Source of the DNA: Granulicella sp.
GTDB taxonomy: Bacteria; Acidobacteriota; Terriglobia; Terriglobales; Acidobacteriaceae
Length of the DNA: 64,000 nucleotides
Reading direction: 5' to 3'
Assembly: GCA_027339965.1 (NCBI GenBank)
Contig: DAHWNL010000073.1
Location: 1,113 to 65,112, forward strand
Below, in pieces: positions 652-20,806 of this stretch. The notes beneath the pieces are model-generated. The model saw only the letters and a list, made by a program, of their open reading frames with translations, ran no database searches and was not told the origin of the DNA. The first letter of the stretch is position 1. Each line of letters starts with the position of its first letter. The position numbers were made by a program, and so were the translations under genes.

Positions 652-1872
652 TCATGCAGCCTCCATCGGAACGACCTCCCCAAAAGGAGCTCTCCGAGCC
701 TCAGTCGACGCCCAGATCACCGGATACGGCGGTGCCCCGCTCGGGAATGTGCCGCACAAATCGGTGAGGAATACCAGAGTCTGCGGGAAGACGCCTCGCT
801 CGTCAAGCCAGTCAAAGCACGAACGGAAATCCGTTCCGCCTCCGCCAACAGGCGAGAGCGACACCGGCTGCCCAGCCTCGTACATTTCCACTCTTTGAAC
901 GGCCACGTCGAAATAGAGCACGTGGACAAGCCGCGGACGCTGTCCGGCCAGGATCGACCGAACCTCGGCCTCAAAGAGTCCAAGCTGTCGGGAGTTTACT
1001 GACCCGGAGCAGTCAACGGCAATGGCAATCTCTCCCACTCCTTCGGAGGTGATCCCAGGTAGATACAGCCCCGCCCAGACATGGCGCCGGTTCGGGCGCG
1101 TCCAGCTATAGTCCGCTGGGATTGTGTCAGACCAGGCCCGGCGCAGCAGTTCGCGCCAGTCCACTTTGGCGGCCTGGGCGGCTTCTAGAGCACGCACTGC
1201 GCCCCCCGGGAGTTTGCCGGCGACCTTCGCGACCGTCTCAGCCTGTTCGACGGCGATCTGCCATTCGCGAGCTTGCTCTGCGATCGAAGTACTGTCTCCT
1301 TCTTCCGGCGCCGGCGCATCGAGCACTTGCCCTACGCCTCCCGGAGTCGATGGAACGGAAGGTACCGCGCTACCGTCATCTTTCTGAGGAGAGTCATTAT
1401 CGGGACTCCCGGATCCGGTTCCCGGCTGGCTATCCCGCTGGCCGGAGGAACCGTCGTGTTCTTCGTCTTCTTCGATCAGGTTGTAGATCCGCTCGGCGCT
1501 CATCCCGCGGAACCGGTTGTCGATGAGAACGTCTTTGGGGAGCGTGAGACCGGCATCAAGCAGAATGGGATTGATGGCATAGTCACACGCCACATTCCAC
1601 CGGGTGTGGTCCCGATCGCCGCGACGCGTGTGGTGTTGCAGCGCCGGGTGCATGACCTCGTGAGCCAGGACGCCGGCCAGTTCTGCCGCATTCAGTGTGT
1701 CTACGAATTCGGGGTTATAGAAGAGCGACACTCCATCGGTTGCCATTGTCGCGACCGACCGTGACGCCTTGCCGCCGAGCCTGAAGAGCAGAGTGCCGAA
1801 GAAAGGATGATCGAGGAGAAGCGTAGTCCGCGCCTTCTGGATGCGGACCTCGCATGGGACCTGGTAGTTCAT
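652..1872 (-). CDS. VWA-domain protein with N-terminal HExxH metallopeptidase-like domain (DUF2201-type)
   Basis: 'LAHEVMHPAL' (HExxH) in the N-terminal half and a MIDAS-like 'AVDCSGS' in the C-terminal half. Start trimmed from the ORF-track start (1944) to the ATG at 1872, which forms an ATGA overlap with the upstream stop. Confidence 0.75.
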   Translation of the reverse strand: MNYQVPCEVRIQKARTTLLLDHPFFGTLLFRLGGKASRSVATMATDGVSLFYNPEFVDTLNAAELAGVLAHEVMHPALQHHTRRGDRDHTRWNVACDYAINPILLDAGLTLPKDVLIDNRFRGMSAERIYNLIEEDEEHDGSSGQRDSQPGTGSGSPDNDSPQKDDGSAVPSVPSTPGGVGQVLDAPAPEEGDSTSIAEQAREWQIAVEQAETVAKVAGKLPGGAVRALEAAQAAKVDWRELLRRAWSDTIPADYSWTRPNRRHVWAGLYLPGITSEGVGEIAIAVDCSGSVNSRQLGLFEAEVRSILAGQRPRLVHVLYFDVAVQRVEMYEAGQPVSLSPVGGGGTDFRSCFDWLDERGVFPQTLVFLTDLCGTFPSGAPPYPVIWASTEARRAPFGEVVPMEAA

Positions 1873-2813
1873 GATACCGGAACCTCCATGTACGCGGCCA
1901 TGTGCGCAAAGATGTCGTCTGCGCTTGCGGCATTCGCCGAACATTCAATCTCCGCCTGCTGCCCGCGCGCTCGCAGTACGGCGTCCATCTTCGTCAGAAT
2001 CTCAGCTGCATCGTTCGCCGTCGCCGCGCGCAGGATCTCGTTCTTCTTGAGGTCCCGTGCGGTGAATCCGCAGAGTCGATCCCGGATTTCCCAGGCAAAG
2101 CGGTTGAGTTCCTCATCCTGATTCACGTTGAGGCGAGGCAGCAACTCGACGAGTTCGCAGATATTGGTCACCAGCGAAGCATGGAAGCGCGACTCGGGTT
2201 CATTAAGGCGCTCCACCATATGCGCAACGACGCCCTTCAGCCGTGTCCACAGGTCTTCAGTCCCTTTCTGCAGCGACTGCCGGACGTTCTCATCGATCTC
2301 GCGCGCGACCCGCGCCTGTTCTTCTTCTGAGAGCGTCACCCGGAAGTCGTTGCCGCTCGGGATGGGAAGGACTTCGAGTTTGACTCCGAACTTGTTCCTG
2401 AGCTTCTCGGTCGACGGATAATCTTCTTCCCGGAATAGCCCGTTGAGCTCCGGCCGAACCTGCTCGATGTAGCTGGGGTAGACGGCCAGGAACTCCTCCA
2501 CCTGATGCGCGAAGGACTGCTCAAACTCGCGCATCTTCGTGGTCAGCTCGAAGTAGAAGTGGGCTGGCAACAGGCGATAGCCCTCGTCGGACCAGGGCAG
2601 CGTGATTTTGTAGAAGTACAGACGAATCTGCCCGGATAGAGTTCGCAGCGATTCCAGCCGCTCCGCCTCACGCAGCAGTTGCTTGTTGTAGCGGCCGGCG
2701 CCGGCATAGGCCCCGTGCTGCTCGGCAACCTCCCGGCTGACCTTGCGGTCGTGTTTGATGGCAGTCCAGATGCTGATATGGACCGCGGCCAGCATGGCGC
2801 GTTCGGTGATCAT
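1869..2813 (-). CDS. conserved hypothetical protein (DUF3150-like), middle gene of the ATPase/VWA triad
   Basis: 314-aa ORF with coding-like composition and 4-nt overlaps with both neighbours. The family assignment is from memory of similar plasmid/ICE proteins and is uncertain. Confidence 0.55.
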   Translation of the reverse strand: MITERAMLAAVHISIWTAIKHDRKVSREVAEQHGAYAGAGRYNKQLLREAERLESLRTLSGQIRLYFYKITLPWSDEGYRLLPAHFYFELTTKMREFEQSFAHQVEEFLAVYPSYIEQVRPELNGLFREEDYPSTEKLRNKFGVKLEVLPIPSGNDFRVTLSEEEQARVAREIDENVRQSLQKGTEDLWTRLKGVVAHMVERLNEPESRFHASLVTNICELVELLPRLNVNQDEELNRFAWEIRDRLCGFTARDLKKNEILRAATANDAAEILTKMDAVLRARGQQAEIECSANAASADDIFAHMAAYMEVPVS

Positions 2814-3820
2814 TGCAAAACCTCCACATGGTCTACGCCGAAGCGGATGAACTCCGGCGTGTGGGTAATGGCCCGATCGCGGGCGGCGGCGTCGCGCATG
2901 GCGAGCACTCGCATCTCGGTCGGCATCCGGTCGAGGTACCGGATTCCCTTGGGAATCGAATGGTCGGTCAGCGCGCGCCCGAGAGCCGTGGCGATGGCAA
3001 TTCGTGCCGACGGCTCATCGGGAAGAGGGGCAGAGTCGGGATTGAGCAGGATCTCGTCGATTGAGGGCAACTGCCGGAAGAGACGCAGGAAGGCGACCAG
3101 CTCCGTCGTCGCCGCCTCTCCAATGGTTCCTTCGAGCAGTTGAGCTTCGATCTCGGTGGCGCCGGAAAAGAAGCCGCTCTGCTGGCGGCGGGCAAAGCCG
3201 CTCATGACATTTGACGCCATCTCCCAGGAACGCGGCGTGGGCCAAGCATTCACGTCGGATGTCGCATCGGGATCGTGGAGGAGTGCCGGCTTGAAGCGCA
3301 GAAAGGCGATGATCTCCGGACGAATCCCGGCCTTCACCGCCCACTTGCACCAGTCCATGAAGTCAGGCTCAAGATCGAGATGAACGAAGCGATTCCGCAG
3401 CGGCCGCGGCATCGAGAAATGGACACCGCGCTCCGATGCCGGATTGCCAGCCGCGATCACCACCCACCCGTCCGGAAGCCGGTACTCGCCCAGCCGGCGA
3501 TCAAGCACGAGCTGGTAGCAGCCGGCCTGGGTCATCTGTGGCGCCGAGGTCAGCTCGTCCAGAAACAGAATGCCTTCGCCATCGATCGGCAGGAATTTCG
3601 GCGGCACCCATTCCGCGCGATCTGCGGAAATCTTCGGCAGGCCGCGCAGATCGACGGGATCGAGTTGCACGGCTCGGATATCGAGGAATTCGCATTTCCG
3701 GTCGGCTGCGACCTGGGCGACAATCTGCGACTTGCCGACGCCGCACGCGCCCCAAATGTGCAGGGGCACAAGTTCGCTGATCAGCGCATGAAGCGCCTCG
3801 TAGAGTTCTGAAGGTTTCAT
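2810..3820 (-). CDS. AAA+ ATPase, MoxR/CobS-like (AAA_5 type)
   Basis: Walker A 'GACGVGKSQ' and Walker B 'ILFLDEL'. First gene of a three-gene overlapping operon with a VWA partner. Confidence 0.8.
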   Translation of the reverse strand: MKPSELYEALHALISELVPLHIWGACGVGKSQIVAQVAADRKCEFLDIRAVQLDPVDLRGLPKISADRAEWVPPKFLPIDGEGILFLDELTSAPQMTQAGCYQLVLDRRLGEYRLPDGWVVIAAGNPASERGVHFSMPRPLRNRFVHLDLEPDFMDWCKWAVKAGIRPEIIAFLRFKPALLHDPDATSDVNAWPTPRSWEMASNVMSGFARRQQSGFFSGATEIEAQLLEGTIGEAATTELVAFLRLFRQLPSIDEILLNPDSAPLPDEPSARIAIATALGRALTDHSIPKGIRYLDRMPTEMRVLAMRDAAARDRAITHTPEFIRFGVDHVEVLQ

Positions 3821-13162: not shown

Positions 13163-13801
13163 ATGAACCGCTCTCTTCCGATCATCAATACGCAAGACCG
13201 CGGATGTACGCCGCCGTCGGATGCACCCAGGATTGTCTTCTGGCTGCAGGGATTGACGCTTGCGTGGATGCTGGCAGAATGTGGAATAGCACTCTATGCT
13301 GCCGCCACAGCTCACAGCATTGCGCTGCTGGCCTTTGGTGCAGACAGCCTGGTGGAGCTTCTCTCGGCAGCCGTTGCTTTGATGTCGTTTTTGCCTGCAT
13401 TTGCGCTTAACAAGACGCGGGCTGCGCGTTGGGCAGGCCTTCTTCTCTTTGCTCTGGCTGGGGTTGTGGCTGCCGCCGCGATCGCAGCTCTCGTGACGGG
13501 TATTCGGCCTCTCACGAGCCCAGCCGGGATCGCGGTCACTATCGCCGCGCTCATTGTGATGCCGACGCTCGCCTGGCTCAAGCACAGAACGGCAAAGACA
13601 ACGGAGAATCGTGCATTAGCCGCGGATGCCGTTCAATCGGCAACATGCGCGTATCTGGCGGGCATTACCCTTCTGGGACTTGGCATCAATGCAGCCTTCC
13701 ACATCGGCTGGATGGATTCCATTGCAGCCTTGGCGGCAGTTCCTTTCCTGATCATCGAGGGTCGTCGTGCTCTCCGCGGTGAGAGCTGCGGGTGCTGTTG
13801 A
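13163..13801 (+). CDS. cation-efflux (CDF)-like membrane protein, transmembrane domain only
   Basis: About 6 TM segments with a CDF-like 'HSIALLAFGADSLVE' block, no cytoplasmic C-terminal domain, and a 'GESCGCC' end. Confidence 0.6.
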   Translation: MNRSLPIINTQDRGCTPPSDAPRIVFWLQGLTLAWMLAECGIALYAAATAHSIALLAFGADSLVELLSAAVALMSFLPAFALNKTRAARWAGLLLFALAGVVAAAAIAALVTGIRPLTSPAGIAVTIAALIVMPTLAWLKHRTAKTTENRALAADAVQSATCAYLAGITLLGLGINAAFHIGWMDSIAALAAVPFLIIEGRRALRGESCGCC

Positions 13802-13907
13802 GTGCAGCAGCTTCAATCATGGCGTGACCCAGAGGTTATCCCATCGTCAAGGCTGTGTAGATTGCACTCGAAAGAAGGCGGACATAACTGGGAACTTCTA
13901 AAGCCCC

Positions 13908-14477
13908 TCAAGCTGCCTCATCCCCTTCTTCGACCTCGCCTTCGGCATACGCCTCCCGGAGGATCTCCTCGTCCTCGTCGGTCTCCGATACCACAATGGC
14001 AGAACGCACGCTCCCGGCAGCCGATCCATCGTCTCCATGGGATCTGACAGGCTCTGGAGCTGTGTCGAACAGGCCAGCCGCTCTGGGAGGCTCGGCTTTC
14101 GCCGGAGCCGGAGCTTCCGACGCCACGGCTGGCTTGCTGGAATTCACGGCCGGATCCTTCTTCGTGATCTGGCTTCCGGACTTCTTTCTCGCTTCGGCGT
14201 TGGCGGCTTTGGAAGCCGCCTCCATTTCGGCTTTGGCCCGTTCTAGCGAGTTCTTCAGTTCGAGGTGGCTGGAGACGAAATGGAGCAGGGTCTGGGGAAG
14301 TTCTCTGTCAAGATCCTCGACAGTGCCGGTCACGCTGACCGGCGTTGTGAGAGCGTCGTTCTCACCGTCGGTGATCTTCTTCGGAATAACGTTCACGCGA
14401 AACCGGTCGTCTTCGACATGGCTTACGGTGAAGAGGACGGCGCGATGCCGCACGAGCGGCGCGAGTTCTTTGAACAT
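13908..14477 (-). CDS. PRTRC system protein E-like
   Basis: 'MFKELAPLV...VNVIPKK...ALTTPVSVTGTVEDLDRELP' followed by a low-complexity acidic tail matches my memory of PRTRC protein E. Start trimmed to the ATG at 14477, which has an upstream GGAGGA. Confidence 0.55.
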   Translation of the reverse strand: MFKELAPLVRHRAVLFTVSHVEDDRFRVNVIPKKITDGENDALTTPVSVTGTVEDLDRELPQTLLHFVSSHLELKNSLERAKAEMEAASKAANAEARKKSGSQITKKDPAVNSSKPAVASEAPAPAKAEPPRAAGLFDTAPEPVRSHGDDGSAAGSVRSAIVVSETDEDEEILREAYAEGEVEEGDEAA

Positions 14478-14633
14478 CGGGATGAATCCTCCGGGATGGA
14501 ATTGGATTTTGACTTCGAAAACAGATCTCCAAGGCCGTAGCATTGCGCCCTTCAGAGAAGTCCAAAACGTGTTACGACAAGAGCCCTGTTCGGTTCCTGC
14601 TCAAGCAAGGCCTCGGGCGAGTATTCTGGCGCT

Positions 14634-15353
14634 ATGAAACCGCAGGTTCATCCTCGAAACCGGCCCGCCCTGGACCAGTCGCTCTCGGACGCGGAATATG
14701 ACCGTCTGGAAGCAATCCTCCGAGGTCTTTCCGGGGAAAGCACCATGAATCTCGAAGAGATGGACGGGTTCTTCGCAGCGCTCATCTGCGGACCGGTGGC
14801 GGTTCCTCCAAGCGCATACCTTGACGAGATCTGGGGTGGCGGTCCGGGTCCGTTCTCCACCGAAGCGGAACTCCGGGAATTCCTCAATCTGGCCATGCGC
14901 CACTGGAATTTTATCGCCCGGGCGCTGGCTACCCCGGATCTGGTCTTCATTCCCCGGCTTATCCTCGAAGAGGACGAGGCAATCCCGCGGGGGAATCGCT
15001 GGGCGCGCAGCTTTCTGCGAGGCGTCGGCCTCTGCCGCAAGGCATGGGATGAGATCTTTGACGACGAGAACAGGTTTGCCATCCTGTTGCCGGTTCTGGC
15101 TCTGGCGCATGAGAACGATCCCGACCCGGAGTTGCGGTCGTGGAAGACTCCGCCGGAAGCCCAATTGCGAAAAGAAGTACTCGCAGGACTATCTGTCGCT
15201 ACGCAGCGGCTCTGGGACTACTTCCGCTCAGGTAGCAGCAGGACGTCCGCCCGCCCCCCCGCAACCAAGTCGAAAATCGGCCGCAACGATCCCTGCTACT
15301 GTGGTTCCGGGAAGAAGTACAAGCGCTGCTGCGGCAACGTCACCGTGCACTGA
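14634..15353 (+). CDS. UPF0149/YecA-like protein with C-terminal SEC-C motif
   Basis: 'MDGFFAALICGP' block and C-terminal 'NDPCYCGSGKKYKRCCG'. Confidence 0.8.
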   Translation: MKPQVHPRNRPALDQSLSDAEYDRLEAILRGLSGESTMNLEEMDGFFAALICGPVAVPPSAYLDEIWGGGPGPFSTEAELREFLNLAMRHWNFIARALATPDLVFIPRLILEEDEAIPRGNRWARSFLRGVGLCRKAWDEIFDDENRFAILLPVLALAHENDPDPELRSWKTPPEAQLRKEVLAGLSVATQRLWDYFRSGSSRTSARPPATKSKIGRNDPCYCGSGKKYKRCCGNVTVH

Positions 15354-15440
15354 GCGGCCGCCTGCGCTCCGGAAAGTTGAGCGATCGGAGAAGGGGACCC
15401 TGTCACACCTGGATGATTGCCGCGCCAGACTTCCGGGACA

Positions 15441-15890
15441 CTATGACGGCGCCAGGATTTCGAGCTTCGGGAAATAGGTCCGATAGCGCGCAGCATCGCG
15501 CGTGAGCAGGGCCAGCCGCTCGATGGCCGCGTGCGCTCCGATATAAAAGTCCGGAAGCGGTGTAGCCCGCCGGCCGCCTCGCCGGCGATAGCTCAGGAAG
15601 CACTTGCCGGCAAGGAACCCGGCCTCCCATGGCAGAGCTTCCCGCTCGTAGGAAGCAAGGGGGAGAGCAGCGTCCAGAGCTTCAATGGTGCTGAATCCGA
15701 TCGATACATCGGCATAGACAATGGGATTGATAATCAGGACCGTGCGTTCGGCACATTCAGCCAGTGCCTGCGCCGACCACTCTGCCCATTTGGCGTCATT
15801 GGTTGCAATATCCAGGAGTATATTGCTGTCGACGAGAACGCCGCGGCAGTTGCTTAGGCGGGAGGACAGGTTACCGAGTGCGATCGTCAT
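15441..15890 (-). CDS. vapC: PIN-domain toxin (VapC family)
   Basis: 'VLVDSNILLD' PIN N-terminal acidic motif. 4-nt overlap with the upstream antitoxin gene. Confidence 0.8.
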   Translation of the reverse strand: MTIALGNLSSRLSNCRGVLVDSNILLDIATNDAKWAEWSAQALAECAERTVLIINPIVYADVSIGFSTIEALDAALPLASYEREALPWEAGFLAGKCFLSYRRRGGRRATPLPDFYIGAHAAIERLALLTRDAARYRTYFPKLEILAPS

Positions 15891-16147
15891 TTTCCCTTCG
15901 CGCCCGACCGGCTGCCTCCGCGGGTCAGTGCCATGATTTCATCCGTCGAGAGGCGTGTATCGGCCGAGCCGCGCAGCGCCCTGAGCGCCCTCTGACCCCG
16001 AACACCGTATCCTTCTGTGCGTCTGGCTTTGCGAATCCGGGCATGGTCGCCGCTCACTTCGAACTCGACCTCGGTATGGGGCAGAAGGCCCAGCTGGTTC
16101 CTGACTTCCTGAGGAATGGTGACCTGACCCTTGCTCGTGATCTGCAT
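15887..16147 (-). CDS. vapB: AbrB/MazE/SpoVT-type antitoxin (VapB)
   Basis: 'MQITSKGQVTIPQEVRNQLGL' swapped-hairpin DNA-binding motif. Overlaps the PIN gene. Confidence 0.8.
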   Translation of the reverse strand: MQITSKGQVTIPQEVRNQLGLLPHTEVEFEVSGDHARIRKARRTEGYGVRGQRALRALRGSADTRLSTDEIMALTRGGSRSGAKGK

Positions 16148-16206
16148 CGGTAATACTCCTACTGGTAAGGGTAGTAGTCATCGATGGGGAAAGCAAGCAA
16201 CGTCGA

Positions 16207-17100
16207 CTAGAGCCCGGATTCCGTTCGACGGACATCGCCCCGGGACTCCCGCCTCGATGTCCATTCTGACCGGTCCCAGCCACCCATCGAATCGGGAAGC
16301 GCACGCTTCCTTTGCGATTTTCGTACCCGGCGCCACAATTCGGGGTCCACAGGAAGGGGGGTCACCTGTCCGGTGGCAGCATTAAAAAATCCGCCGTGAT
16401 GGCAAAGTCTGCCGTAGCGGAAGAGTCTCGCCAGCATGGCCAAGGCGCTTGTAGCGAGCGTTTGATTGATGAACGGCTCCTGCCGTTCGAGCGCCTCGAC
16501 GGCAGAGCAACTGGGCAGAGGGTCTTCGCCGGCTGCGGCATCGGCAATCTCCGGATAGAGCTCGCTGACCGTCCGCAGCCGTTCCGCCTTGCGGCGGTTC
16601 CTACCATTGAGCGGCTGGCCCAGTACGAACTGTCCGCTCGACGCGTTGTTGCCGAGATCGAGCCAGTACGTGACATAGCTCGACTTCCTGGTCACGCTTC
16701 GCTCAATGACACCGCGTGCCCCCCGCGTGTCCACACACCCAATCAGAAGATCTGGGCTGTGGTCATGATTCGGCCGGACCGTCGTCTCATCAAAGCACGT
16801 AGGTTGGGCATTCCACTTCGTCCCCCAGAACAGGTTGATGCGGTTGATCAGGACCGTCGCCTTGTTCTGTCCCACATCGGACCACGAGAACGGCTGCCGA
16901 ACGCAATTGGTTTCAGAGACCGTGTCCCCATCCATGAGGGTGACTTCGAGACCATAGGGATGTCCCCATGCCCGCATCGCCTGGTGGAGATACGGCAACC
17001 CCATTACGATGGCGCTCCCCGTGCCACCGGCGCCCACCACCAGAATCCTCAAGGGCTGGCGACCGAGCAGACCGGACGGGAGAAGATGCTCGATGCGCAT
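16207..17100 (-). CDS. PRTRC system ThiF-family (E1-like) protein
   Basis: Rossmann 'ILVVGAGGTGSAIV' and 'LMDGDTVSETNCVRQ', typical of ThiF/MoeB/E1 adenylating enzymes. Sits immediately downstream of the E2-like gene. Confidence 0.8.
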   Translation of the reverse strand: MRIEHLLPSGLLGRQPLRILVVGAGGTGSAIVMGLPYLHQAMRAWGHPYGLEVTLMDGDTVSETNCVRQPFSWSDVGQNKATVLINRINLFWGTKWNAQPTCFDETTVRPNHDHSPDLLIGCVDTRGARGVIERSVTRKSSYVTYWLDLGNNASSGQFVLGQPLNGRNRRKAERLRTVSELYPEIADAAAGEDPLPSCSAVEALERQEPFINQTLATSALAMLARLFRYGRLCHHGGFFNAATGQVTPLPVDPELWRRVRKSQRKRALPDSMGGWDRSEWTSRRESRGDVRRTESGL

Positions 17101-17106
17101 CGCTCG

Positions 17107-17814
17107 CTACCTCCCCTGAATGAATTGCGCGAGCGTCTGCGGCAAGCGAATCAGCGCATCGGCAGGAAACGGCCGCCGCTTGCCGGCAAGCTCGGCCCAC
17201 AGAGCATCGTGGCCGCCCTTGTGACGCGTGACTCTTCCCACATTGGCGTGCGTGAACGCGCTTTCGTAGAATCCCTGCTCCCAAGCTCCGATCGATGTCA
17301 CCGATGCAGTCTCGGGACAGCGCATCGATCCCAGGCACACACGGCCGTCATCCGAGAGATTCCAGAAGGGAGCGACGGCAAGCGCGGTTTCAGCGTCTGG
17401 CCGTTTATTCTCGCAGATCGCCCGGATCTTCAGGTCTCCCTGCGCCACCCTCCACACGAGCGGTGGCTGCGGGAAGACTTTGCCATTGAGGCGCTCCGCC
17501 TTGCCCTCGACGTTCTCGAAGAACATGCGTCGCGCGCGCCGCGGCGTCCACCAGACGATCATTCGGTCCGTTTTCGCCAGAACGTTTTCCGACAGTATCT
17601 CGGCTACAGCGCCACCGGACAGCGACTCTGCCAAGTCTTCGATGAAAGCGGACGTCAATGGTTGCGCCGGTCCGAGTGTTGGCGGACCTTGTGGCTGCGC
17701 CGTTACCGTGTGCCAGGTGATAAAGCTGCGCCGGTTCTCGCGGTAGACGAGCAGCGCGTCACGCAACTCGAAGCGATGCATCTCCCCGATCGCGATCTCA
17801 ACTTTCATTTCCAT
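17107..17814 (-). CDS. PRTRC system protein B-like (E2/UBC-like fold predicted)
   Basis: 'APFWNLSDDGRVCLGS' resembles the E2 'HPN...G.ICL' catalytic-Cys flap. Start trimmed to the ATG at 17814 (17808 is also possible). Confidence 0.6.
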   Translation of the reverse strand: MEMKVEIAIGEMHRFELRDALLVYRENRRSFITWHTVTAQPQGPPTLGPAQPLTSAFIEDLAESLSGGAVAEILSENVLAKTDRMIVWWTPRRARRMFFENVEGKAERLNGKVFPQPPLVWRVAQGDLKIRAICENKRPDAETALAVAPFWNLSDDGRVCLGSMRCPETASVTSIGAWEQGFYESAFTHANVGRVTRHKGGHDALWAELAGKRRPFPADALIRLPQTLAQFIQGR

Positions 17815-18901
17815 CCTTCTCCCACGCCTGGAGTTCTTCAATCAATTGGCAGACCTCCCGGTTCACAAGCACAAAACGCTCGGCGGCACGTATCGCCGCA
17901 GAGCACTCTTCCGGATTGTCGAGTCTGAACACCGCACAGAAGGCCGGTTCCGCGGAGCCTTCCAGCATGTGCTGGCTCTCTTCGTCGAAACAGGCCGCTA
18001 CGGCGTCATGCTCCTCGAAGACGATCAGGAGCGCCGGCAAGGGCGGTCCGTCGTAATACCCGTCGTAGTCTGCCGGTTCAAACGATCTCGCTTTGACCCT
18101 CGAGAGCCTGGCAATCGTCTCGACGTGCCGAATCCAGTTCCGGTACTGTCCATTGCGATGACGCCAGAGCAAGCGCCGGTAATCGGGACGCCAGTGTTCC
18201 GATTCGTGTTTGAGACTCCTGCGGATGCACTCGGGCAACGCCTTCTCGACCTCAGGAAACTCGTACTGATCCCGATTGGCCGGGTCGTCTTCCTGGGCAT
18301 ACTCGATCAGGTTTTCCTCATAGGCTTGCGCGTCGCTGTGGTCGTAGATCCGCATCACGCGATAGAGCGAACGGATGAGCGTCCAATAAAAGGCCGCACC
18401 CAGACCTTCTTCCTCTGATTCGAGGGCCCGCAATGCCGGACCCATCTTGAGATAGCCGCAGCCGCTGCAGTGGATGGTGATCGCCAACTGTCCCGTGTTG
18501 AGGCCGGCGCTGTCCGCGCCGACCACATCCGTGACTTCGAGGTGATATTCGACATTGCGTTCGAGGAGATCAATGGTCTCCTTGCCGATCCGATTCGCAA
18601 TGGAGCGCCGTGCAAAGGCAAGCGGGTCTTCGCCGCACTCGGTCCACAGCGCCGGTGTGCCCAGCCCCATCCGGACTAGAGTCGCGCATAGTACATAGAG
18701 CATTTCGCCGTTGACTTCATGGCTGTAGGTGGCGGGCTGACGGTTTAAGGATGGCAATGCCTGAGAGAAGGCCGGGGCCAGAGTCGCTATTGAAGGGGCG
18801 GCAGGAATTCCGTAGGCGCCGGCAAGGCCCGCACGTTGTCCGCGTGATAGCGACCGAGCGCGCTGGTCACGGCGTCCGCGAGTTCGAGAGATTCTTTGCA
18901 T
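17798..18901 (-). CDS. PRTRC system protein F-like
   Basis: 367-aa ORF between the Ub-like and E2-like genes, the position protein F occupies in PRTRC cassettes as I recall them. No catalytic motif recognised. Confidence 0.5.
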   Translation of the reverse strand: MQRISRTRGRRDQRARSLSRGQRAGLAGAYGIPAAPSIATLAPAFSQALPSLNRQPATYSHEVNGEMLYVLCATLVRMGLGTPALWTECGEDPLAFARRSIANRIGKETIDLLERNVEYHLEVTDVVGADSAGLNTGQLAITIHCSGCGYLKMGPALRALESEEEGLGAAFYWTLIRSLYRVMRIYDHSDAQAYEENLIEYAQEDDPANRDQYEFPEVEKALPECIRRSLKHESEHWRPDYRRLLWRHRNGQYRNWIRHVETIARLSRVKARSFEPADYDGYYDGPPLPALLIVFEEHDAVAACFDEESQHMLEGSAEPAFCAVFRLDNPEECSAAIRAAERFVLVNREVCQLIEELQAWEKDGNES

Positions 18902-19007
18902 CGGAGGTGCCTCACCAGAAGCTCATTCTGTCGGCTCGGAGGAGCCGCGGCCCTGTCCTTGAAAGCAGCGATCAGTTCCTCCGTGCTCTTTTGCTGGCGC
19001 CGCACGG

Positions 19008-19220
19008 CTATCCCTTCGAACCGATGGCCCGGTTGAACGTGTAGCGAAGAGCGCTGCCCGTATCCTCCGGCCCTTCGAGGGTCGCAGTCGCAATCTCAGG
19101 CCAGGTCGGGGTAAGCAACTCGCGCACCTGCTCGACGGACAAATTGGGAGCGGGATCAGGAATTCGAGTTCCGTTGTAGAAGAATTCGCGCTGCAGTGCT
19201 TCAACTTTGAGACCACTCAT
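19008..19220 (-). CDS. PRTRC system protein C-like (ubiquitin-like beta-grasp)
   Basis: 70 aa ending in '...AIGSKG' directly before the stop. First gene of the cassette. Confidence 0.6.
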   Translation of the reverse strand: MSGLKVEALQREFFYNGTRIPDPAPNLSVEQVRELLTPTWPEIATATLEGPEDTGSALRYTFNRAIGSKG

Positions 19221-19318
19221 GAATAGCTTCTCCTTGGTCGTCGAGAATTGGTCGACGTGGGATTTATGCCGGAAATCTGATTCAATGGACAGGAACCACT
19301 GACTTTGAAAGGACCGGA

Positions 19319-19555
19319 ATGGGAATCAACGAAATCGTTGCGGCTCTCGACGATGAGATCAGCCGGCTCGAGCAGGTGCGCAGTCTGCTGGCAGGCACCA
19401 AAGGCAGTGTCAAGCACGCGGCAACTTCCTTCGCATTCGGTGCGAACCAGGACAAGTCACGCAAACGCCGCCATCTCAGCGCCGAGGCCAGAGAGCGAAT
19501 CGCCGCCGCGCAGAGGAAACGCTGGGCGGCTCAGAAGAAGGCTGCTAAGAAATAG
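19319..19555 (+). CDS. small basic protein, unknown function
   Basis: 78 aa with a 'LSAEARERIAAAQRKRWAAQKKAAKK' tail. Divergent from the PRTRC operon. Confidence 0.4.
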   Translation: MGINEIVAALDDEISRLEQVRSLLAGTKGSVKHAATSFAFGANQDKSRKRRHLSAEARERIAAAQRKRWAAQKKAAKK

Positions 19556-19635
19556 CCTCACTGAGCCACGGCTTTCGATTTGTGGCGGGACGACCTACGA
19601 TTGCCAGCGTCAACGATGAAGTGCTCCAACCTGTA

Positions 19636-20256
19636 TCAGGAGCAGCCACTCGTCCCGCCGCAGTTCCTGCACACGAAGCAGTTTCCATTCGGACTCATCA
19701 GAGCGCCGCAGGAACGGCAGGCTGGCGCGTCGCCAGCTTCCAATCCTTGTGACGAAATCGGTACGACTTTGCTCGGATCGGCCGCACTGCCGCGGTAATT
19801 GCCGGATTCCGAAAACAGAGCGAGTTGCGTTCCGGAGAGGAAGCGGAGTTCGAGCCACCGGAACAGGTAGTCCATGATCGACTTCGCGTAGCCCAGTTCC
19901 GCGCTCCCCGTCCAGCCCGATGGCTCAAAGCGAGTGTGCGACAGCTTATCGCAAAGCACACGCAAAGGCACGCCATGCTGGAGACTGACGGATAAGACGG
20001 TTCCGAAGCATTCCATCAGGCCGGCAATGGTCGATCCCTCCTTGGACATCCGGATGAAGACCTCGCCAGGCTGACCGTTGGGGTAGAGACCGACCGTCAA
20101 GTAGCCTTCATGTCCTCCGACCGCGAAGTGATGCGTGATCGCCGGGCGCTCGTCGGGAAGGCGGTGGCGGTTGGCGTCCGGAGGCCCCAAGGGCTCCGTC
20201 TGCGGTGCCTCACTTGCGACGAGCGAATCGTGAGAAGGCGCGCTGTAGGCATCCAT
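19636..20256 (-). CDS. stand-alone class II (B12-dependent) ribonucleotide reductase C-terminal domain-like protein with Cys-rich tail
   Basis: 'GGHEGYLTVGLYPNGQPGEVFIRMSKEGSTIAGLMECFGTVLSVSLQHGVPLRVLCDKLSHTRFEPSGWT' closely resembles the NrdJ C-terminal region as I remember it. Ends with 'CRSCG...CFVCRNCGGTSGCS'. Confidence 0.7.
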   Translation of the reverse strand: MDAYSAPSHDSLVASEAPQTEPLGPPDANRHRLPDERPAITHHFAVGGHEGYLTVGLYPNGQPGEVFIRMSKEGSTIAGLMECFGTVLSVSLQHGVPLRVLCDKLSHTRFEPSGWTGSAELGYAKSIMDYLFRWLELRFLSGTQLALFSESGNYRGSAADPSKVVPISSQGLEAGDAPACRSCGALMSPNGNCFVCRNCGGTSGCS

Positions 20257-20374
20257 TTCTATCCTCCTGCAAGGAATTGCGGCCGTCGCTGGACGGGCCG
20301 TTCGCGACGCCAGCGAAGAGGGTTGTACCTCCGGATCGAATTTCGGTCAAACGCGCTGAACCGCGGTTGGAAAG

Positions 20375-20806
20375 CTATGCGGCTAACTGCCGCATCTCTT
20401 TGAGCTTGCGGTAGAAAGTGGTCTTCCCAATGCCCAGCAGGCGCGCGGCCTCGATCGGCTTTCGATTGGACTTGCTGTAAGCGGCCAGGATCATGGCCCG
20501 CTCCATCTCGTCGAGCGTTGGGAACGCCTCCATAGTCGAGAGCGGATTCAAATGCACTGGGAGCTGCCGGTGCGCAGGAGACTCTTCCAGCCTCGCTGCC
20601 GTGGCGGAGATAAGTTTCGAAGCTTCCTGGAGTTTCAACAGGCATTGAGAATCCGGTTGATATACGACTCTCTCCACCACCCGTTCGACGACGTTCACGA
20701 TGGGCGCGGGCAGGGCCTGGCCGCAGCGACGGCAGTTCGCATGATCTGCCCACTGCACCAGTTCGCACTGGACACAACGAACCGTCTCTCTTTCCTTGTT
20801 CATCAT
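20375..20806 (-). CDS. Fis-family HTH transcriptional regulator with N-terminal zinc-ribbon
   Basis: 'CVQCELVQWADHANCRRCG' and the C-terminal 'AARLLGIGKTTFYRKLKE'. Start trimmed to the ATGATG at 20806, preceded by GAGGTG. Confidence 0.7.
   Translation of the reverse strand: MMNKERETVRCVQCELVQWADHANCRRCGQALPAPIVNVVERVVERVVYQPDSQCLLKLQEASKLISATAARLEESPAHRQLPVHLNPLSTMEAFPTLDEMERAMILAAYSKSNRKPIEAARLLGIGKTTFYRKLKEMRQLAA

Follow-up and report, generated by a model that had tools for sequence, protein, structure and literature searches.

A conserved PRTRC gene cassette lacking the A and ParB genes in an integrative conjugative element of Acidobacteriaceae

When a gene cassette predicted to carry out ubiquitin-like conjugation is found without two of its usual members, and with foreign genes lying among those that are left, is it the residue of a system on its way to being lost, or a reduced form that still works? 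The question is raised by a 64,000-nucleotide (nt) stretch of a Granulicella sp. genome (the window; C7:1113-65112, on contig C7 of a 3.8-Mb genome with a completeness of 98.9%), which carries on its minus strand the genes of a PRTRC (ParB-related/ThiF-related) cassette. In the classification of Iyer, Burroughs and Aravind (PMC1779556), the canonical layout of this cassette is operon class "6d". The original prediction, made from the letters of the window, described the cassette as rearranged and apparently incomplete. Here, we argue that it is a conserved variant found throughout a lineage, and not a product of decay or a broken remnant. We assign a probability of roughly 0.6 to the reading that it is a functional, reduced PRTRC (6d) derivative and a backbone component of an integrative conjugative element (ICE) widespread in the Acidobacteriaceae. 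It is an ordinary member of a gene family already known, differing in arrangement, and reveals no new mechanism.

The minus-strand gene order that had been read from the window, a small Gly-terminated protein (C), a 367-amino-acid (aa) protein, an E2-like protein (B) and a ThiF/E1-like protein, was confirmed by the open reading frames (ORFs) and by family matches far above chance. Four of the five cassette proteins score above the cut-off of their PRTRC family models (TIGR03738 for C, TIGR03737 for B, TIGR03736 for ThiF and TIGR03741 for E; Table 1), and the fifth, F, is a remote homologue that is taken up separately below. These matches support assignment of the genes to the PRTRC/6d-type set, and most of the encoded proteins are already annotated automatically in public records. 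The C protein ends in AIGSKG followed directly by the stop, with the codon of the terminal Gly70 at 19011-19013. The likely start of B is the MKVE at 17808, as in its relatives, with the longest ORF beginning at 17841. B, which is encoded by the only B-type gene in the genome, contains FWNLSDDGRVCLG, and its putative catalytic Cys lies within GRVCLG (codon 17335-17337), with an Asn 8 residues before it and a His 29 residues after it. In ThiF, the GAGGTGS motif occupies residues 23-29 and a PSCS motif residues 196-199, the codon of Cys198 being 16507-16509. The E protein scores 23.3 against the Pfam model PF19556, just below the cut-off of 26. An N-terminal conserved domain (about 100 aa) leads into a low-complexity stretch rich in Ala, Lys and Pro and then an acidic tail. 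The protein has more than 1000 close relatives, many of which have already been named PRTRC protein E by JGI or NCBI. All five cassette ORFs are intact.

Table 1. Genes of the PRTRC cassette, cargo genes lying between ThiF and E, and the neighbouring MoxR triad, in window positions.
Feature	Position	Strand	Basis or remark
PRTRC protein C, ubiquitin-like (Prok_Ub), 70 aa	19008-19220	-	TIGR03738 79.9 bits (cut-off 45.95); PF14454 E 6e-19
Divergent PRTRC F homologue, 367 aa, alpha/beta	17798-18901	-	Profile-profile homology and position
PRTRC protein B, E2-like (Prok-E2_D)	17107-17808 (longest ORF 17107-17841)	-	TIGR03737 180.8 bits (cut-off 131.45); PF14460 E 4e-39
PRTRC ThiF, E1-like adenylating enzyme	16207-17100	-	TIGR03736 274.1 bits (cut-off 144.75); PF00899
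VapB-type (AbrB/MazE) antitoxin, inserted cargo	15887-16147	-	TIGR01439 and PF04014 above cut-off
VapC PIN-domain toxin, inserted cargo	15441-15890	-	PF01850 27.9 bits (cut-off 23.6)
YecA-like UPF0149 and SEC-C protein, inserted cargo	14634-15353	+	TIGR02292 121 bits; PF03695; PF02810
PRTRC protein E, 189 aa	13908-14477	-	TIGR03741 64.4 bits (cut-off 37.95)
MoxR-type AAA+ / 314-aa protein / DUF2201 (HExxH zincin and VWA) triad	652-3820	-	Backbone neighbour, same strand as cassette

The 367-aa protein had been called F-like, a name that stands by homology and synteny and finds no echo in the family models: neither a protein search with TIGR03742 and PF14456 nor a six-frame genome search with PRTRC_F gave a match. 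A pairwise BLAST comparison with F of the Cupriavidus metallidurans plasmid pMOL28 (E 1.9) was set aside as uninformative for identity. Alignment by hhalign of a profile of 63 diverse full-length homologues with one of 23 canonical F proteins, on the other hand, gave a probability of 97.2% (E 2.9e-11), the 297 aligned columns taking in nearly the full length, with the acidic motif CFDEE (residues 304-308) in register with LLDD of canonical F, and 3 of the 63 family members match PF14456 by themselves. The protein also sits where F does in pMOL28, between C and B. Judged by synteny and profile-profile homology, it is F, diverged beyond the reach of its models. F-position proteins of cassettes in Pseudomonas, Sphingobium, Shewanella and Deinococcus are not recognised by Pfam either, so that failure of the models is normal for the fast-evolving F. 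The 367-aa protein has over 1000 close homologues, about 380 aa long and all without a name; 382 clusters were counted at 50% identity. An AlphaFold2 (AF2) model of F reached a predicted local distance difference test score (pLDDT) of 86.3 and a predicted template modelling score (pTM) of 0.80; a fold search of BFVD with this model returned a single match, an uncharacterised phage protein, which offers no functional clue.

Three further proteins with PRTRC family models, A, ParB and D, are missing from the genome as far as the searches reach. The 6 nt between the stop of B and the start of ThiF leave no gene where A would be, as had been predicted. In six-frame searches of the whole genome, PRTRC_A (DUF2016 plus Prok-JAB) was not found (best E 0.4), PRTRC ParB (TIGR03734) had no match at E <= 1, and PRTRC_D (TIGR03739) had no match. 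The claim that the window is without a ParB homologue therefore holds for the window and for the genome as a whole, the contig extending only 1112 bases to the left of the window. The ParB_N domain (PF02195) was not detected anywhere in the genome (best E 0.73), not even in a chromosomal ParB, a negative that could reflect an assembly gap or a limit of the first-look filter of the search.

One Prok-JAB protein does occur in the genome, a protein of 153 aa (C2:8487-8948) encoded on contig C2 near a 405-aa MoeZ/MoeB-like adenylyltransferase (the pair spanning C2:8487-11280). This pair is a housekeeping context of the CysO/Mec sulfur-carrier type, unrelated to the ICE. The JAB protein was considered as an A component acting in trans and rejected, given its chromosomal context beside the MoeZ-like gene and a PRTRC_A match of only E 0.4.

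The architecture of the window is shared by its relatives. A scan of genomes, one per species, gave 207 loci with a relative of B, of which the best 80, all from Acidobacteriaceae, were used, and a scan of metagenomes gave more than 437 such loci, of which 80 were used. ORFs from these 160 loci were searched by phmmer with the proteins of the window and with A and ParB from canonical plasmids. The order C-F-B-ThiF-E was found wherever the contig was long enough, and all five genes were present in 38 of the 40 genome loci with full flanks. Neither A nor ParB was matched in any of the 160 loci (80 genome, 80 metagenome), a negative that is meaningful because the same search picked up a divergent A, lying between B and ThiF, in another acidobacterial family. 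The divergent cassettes of that other family (L109:7289-9457 and L111:7103-9356) have the canonical order of B, an A-like JAB protein and ThiF, and A-containing and A-less forms thus both occur within the phylum. Carriers of the cassette include the cultured Telmatobacter bradus DSM 23630, which has two copies, Granulicella sp. L60 and Acidicapsa dinghuensis 4GSKX. At one locus of A. dinghuensis (L085), C was not matched and the F match is placed some 8 kb upstream of B, a layout that suggests an insertion or rearrangement inside the cassette.

The residues on which a conjugation pathway would depend are conserved as well. The C protein ends in AIG[ST]KG in 64 of 65 relatives, the Cys of B is present in all of them, and the PSCS of ThiF in 75 of 78. 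Across Acidobacteriota, Pseudomonadota and Deinococcota, Asn150, Cys158 and Gly160 of B (233-aa numbering) are invariant and His187 is nearly so. The ratio of nonsynonymous to synonymous substitution rates (dN/dS), calculated against a relative of about 85% identity, is 0.025 for C, 0.17 for F, 0.08 for B, 0.09 for ThiF and 0.18 for E; all five genes are under purifying selection. Two soil runs labelled as RNA contain short contigs, 85-95% similar, that cover all five genes, weak evidence, a hint rather than proof, that relatives of the cassette are transcribed. The description of the cassette as incomplete is accurate in that A and ParB are missing; it does not hold in the sense of a degenerate cassette, as the order is fixed in Acidobacteriaceae and the genes are maintained by selection.

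A comparison with the annotated cassette of pMOL28, which has the order ParB-E-C-F-B-A-ThiF, shows where the two forms agree and where they part. In pMOL28, A consists of DUF2016 and Prok-JAB, F is the Pfam family alpha-hel2, and D is not annotated in the cassette region. Taken against this PRTRC set (NCBIfam TIGR03734-03742), the window has C, B, ThiF and E proteins that pass the models, a homologous F in the same place, the same C-F-B order and a setting in a conjugative element. It differs in lacking A, ParB and any TIGR03739 D match, in carrying E downstream of ThiF instead of upstream of C, in having an F too divergent for the models, and in the cargo slot that lies between ThiF and E. 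The features listed for class 6d are likewise largely present, with a ubiquitin-like (Ub-like) protein and an E1, an E2 in which a Cys and a His C-terminal to it are conserved, and a rapidly diverging helical protein with conserved acidic residues, whereas the window is without the JAB component and its N-terminal alpha+beta (DUF2016) domain.

Loss of A is not unusual and is recurrent elsewhere. The Pseudomonas aeruginosa plasmid pPUV-7 has the order ParB-E-C-x-B-ThiF (x being an intervening protein), with B and ThiF 3 nt apart, and the Deinococcus ficus plasmids pDFI3 and pDFI1 have E-C-x-x-x-B-ThiF and x-B-ThiF, respectively; none of the intervening proteins of these three cassettes carries a JAB domain. 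The window resembles these plasmids in that B is followed directly by ThiF, in the absence of a JAB protein, in an F-position protein that Pfam does not recognise and in a C that ends in KG. It is unlike them in that the Pseudomonas cassette keeps ParB and both the Pseudomonas cassette and pDFI3 keep E upstream of C, and the plasmid proteins share only about 26-41% identity with B and ThiF of the window. Of the 348 plasmid records in which B was matched, 141 are from Pseudomonas.

The same comparison bears on the suggestion that no JAB-type processing is needed because C already ends in Gly. The Gly end is real, and a C made in this form would need no protease for its activation. As a sign of independence from JAB it has no special meaning here, since the KG end is the norm in the family: C of Sphingobium (where A is present), C of Shewanella and C of the A-less Pseudomonas and Deinococcus cassettes all end exactly at KG, and pMOL28, with a 5-aa tail after KG, is the exception. 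A link between loss of the JAB protein and a C made already Gly-ended was rejected on the strength of these C ends, that of Sphingobium being KG with A present.

A further departure from the canonical layout is the position of E, which was confirmed, by ORFs and families, to be split from the other genes by a VapBC pair and an opposite-strand YecA-like gene. In the Acidobacteriaceae lineage, E is always downstream of ThiF, at a distance of no more than about 600 nt in 47 of 64 loci. In 17 of the 64, the window included, the gap between ThiF and E holds cargo, namely VapBC, a zeta-toxin-like and/or a YecA-like gene in varied combinations. VapB is present in only a subset of relatives, and the YecA-like gene travels with VapBC or zeta-toxin genes in this slot. 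In the window, vapC overlaps vapB by 4 nt, and a PADLOC search matched the YecA-like protein to PDC-S12, a candidate phage-defence family (E 1.2e-36). The displacement of E and its separation by cargo are two separate events, the first a relocation that is fixed in the lineage, the second a later insertion of the VapBC/YecA block into a hot spot.

The neighbourhood in which the cassette lies is an ICE. Genes for a coupling protein, a VirB4/TraG ATPase, an AEP primase, Rad52, RNase H, a SNF2 helicase and a methyltransferase are found around it, and DNA identical to the window is present in four mine-drainage metagenome runs. In the Acidobacteriota, PRTRC B-type genes are sporadic (11 of 401 genomes), the pattern expected of a mobile element. 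The relatives share a backbone with the order SNF2 - (h170 / HTH_8 / TSCPD) - C-F-B-ThiF-E - variable slot - MoxR AAA+ / 314-aa / DUF2201 zincin-VWA.

If the cassette is a functional, reduced PRTRC derivative, the ThiF-type E1 would adenylate the free C-terminal Gly70 of C, and C would pass as a thioester, probably via Cys198 of ThiF, to Cys158 of B and would then be attached to a target. The divergent F and E proteins could serve as specificity, adaptor or substrate factors. With no JAB protein A in the cassette, the tag would be irreversible unless something else took it off. The history of the cassette would be one in which the lineage lost ParB and moved E behind ThiF, and the gap between ThiF and E became a landing site for toxin-antitoxin modules and other cargo. 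Its position among the SNF2, methyltransferase, Rad52, RNase H and primase genes makes a role in establishment or maintenance of the ICE after transfer the most plausible one.

Several points weigh against this reading. The proposed role in establishment or maintenance is taken solely from gene neighbourhood, and thioester transfer and conjugation from membership of Pfam and NCBIfam families together with the conserved Cys and Gly residues. Literature searches found no biochemical work on any PRTRC/6d system: papers that mention PRTRC report its presence only, a preprint of December 2024 gives its function as unknown, and searches on 6d, Prok-E2, alpha-hel2 and DUF2016 found nothing relevant. 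The statement of the original prediction that conjugation has not been shown experimentally agrees with the papers that could be searched. On the structural side, an AF2 model of B built from a shallow alignment has a pLDDT of 43 and did not confirm a UBC fold, set against a strong Prok-E2_D match; B is without a relative in the Protein Data Bank (PDB) by sequence or profile search, and a fold search with the F model gave no PDB match (best E 0.96, TM-score <= 0.16). The contigs from the soil RNA runs come from metagenome relatives and may include DNA. For the two remaining activation components, no PDB entry is related to C by sequence, and searches with ThiF gave weak matches to Cap2, MccB and Atg7, the nearest solved structures being CBASS Cap2 chains (E 0.06).

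This faint resemblance of ThiF to Cap2 leads to the alternative that survives best, one that we consider possible but doubtful, in which the cassette would serve in defence against phages or plasmids in the manner of Bil, Bub or CBASS-Cap2, travelling as cargo of the ICE, and C would be conjugated to a protein of the invader. The experimentally characterised bacterial ubiquitin-like systems are CBASS Cap2, Bil types I and II (6C) and Bub (6E), all of which conjugate proteins, and every bacterial operon of E1, E2 and a ubiquitin-like protein characterised so far acts against phage (PMC10557695, PMC11601603). The cassette has the logic of Bil (BilABCD), Bub/6E and Type II CBASS Cap2/Cap3 in its E1, E2 and Gly-terminated modifier, its ThiF is weakly similar to Cap2 and to cap2_3 of the 6A-MBL system, and toxin-antitoxin modules and the PDC-S12 candidate defence gene adjoin it. 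Unlike those systems, it is without a deubiquitinase, has F and E in addition and stands in an ICE backbone. None of the PADLOC and NCBIfam models for Bil, Bub, CBASS Cap2/3 and 6A-MBL matches a protein of the cassette above threshold: PADLOC has no model that matches C, F, B or E, and ThiF reaches about 20 bits against E1-E2 models and 25.5 bits against 6A-MBL cap2_3, for which the cut-off is 320. The location of the genes also argues against defence, since in relatives the cassette occupies a fixed position between SNF2 and the MoxR triad and the defence-type genes lie in variable slots alongside; in its canonical form, PRTRC goes with ParB and with the backbones of plasmids or ICEs.

A pathway of sulfur-carrier or small-molecule type, comparable to ThiS-ThiF or MoaD-MoeB, in which C would be thiocarboxylated instead of conjugated, has classical precedent, as pairs of a ThiF-family E1 and a Gly-terminated beta-grasp protein are typically sulfur carriers, and the lack of a deconjugating peptidase in the cassette would suit it. 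We regard it as improbable. The cassette encodes a dedicated E2-like protein with an invariant Cys, includes neither a rhodanese nor a cysteine desulfurase nor a biosynthetic partner, and lies on a mobile element; the genome has its housekeeping JAB and MoeZ-like pair elsewhere, on contig C2.

It is just as difficult to favour the proposal that C, ThiF, B, F and E form a protease-free "writer" for which the MoxR triad replaces the JAB eraser, acting as an AAA/VWA/metallopeptidase partner in reading and removal, with F as a ligase or specificity factor. In 24 of the 40 relatives with full flanks (for example L074:12917-16205), the triad is located on the same strand, a few kb downstream of E, and it was not found beside canonical plasmid PRTRC cassettes. 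In the window, a metal-efflux island (at about 3.8-13.8 kb) has been inserted between the triad and E.

Hardly credible, finally, is the view that this is a decaying, non-working remnant of a canonical PRTRC cassette that lost A and ParB and was split by insertions: the absence of A, ParB and D from the whole genome, the failure of F against its family models and the foreign genes between ThiF and E would all fit it, but the same architecture recurs in all 160 related loci, with more than 200 genome and 437 metagenome matches in existence, the five ORFs are intact with dN/dS of 0.03-0.18 and conserved catalytic residues, and the F-position proteins of the Pseudomonas, Sphingobium, Shewanella and Deinococcus cassettes fail Pfam too.

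Around the reduced cassette that we favour, a few neighbouring features deserve mention. Directly upstream of C, on the same minus strand, lies a gene for a stand-alone TSCPD-domain protein with a Cys-rich tail (19636-20256). A TSCPD gene is found upstream of C in only about one quarter of the related loci examined, which marks it as a facultative neighbour and not part of the cassette core. Between this gene and C, on the opposite strand, an ORF of 78 aa (19319-19555) encodes a protein with a Lys/Arg-rich C-terminus. It has no Pfam or PADLOC match. The ORF is conserved in the same spot in the nearest subgroup of relatives (14 genome loci and many metagenome loci) and might encode a small regulator that is transcribed divergently. 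A scan of 13600-20500 for promoters and terminators found no signal beyond that expected from shuffled sequence. In Acidobacteria bacterium AB60, the slot between E and the MoxR triad (L074:11608-12916) holds what by eye looks like an Xre/DUF2384-type antitoxin paired with a RES-domain toxin-like protein, which would be further toxin-antitoxin cargo in the same region.

Among the bacterial E1-E2-Ub-like operons of the 2006 survey, PRTRC/6d is the one class for which no experimental work was found. The compact and abundant five-gene form described here implies that the deubiquitinase and ParB are dispensable for the core function of the system, and the minimal set to reconstitute would be C, F, B, ThiF and E. 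The existence of cultured carriers makes the question testable at the bench.

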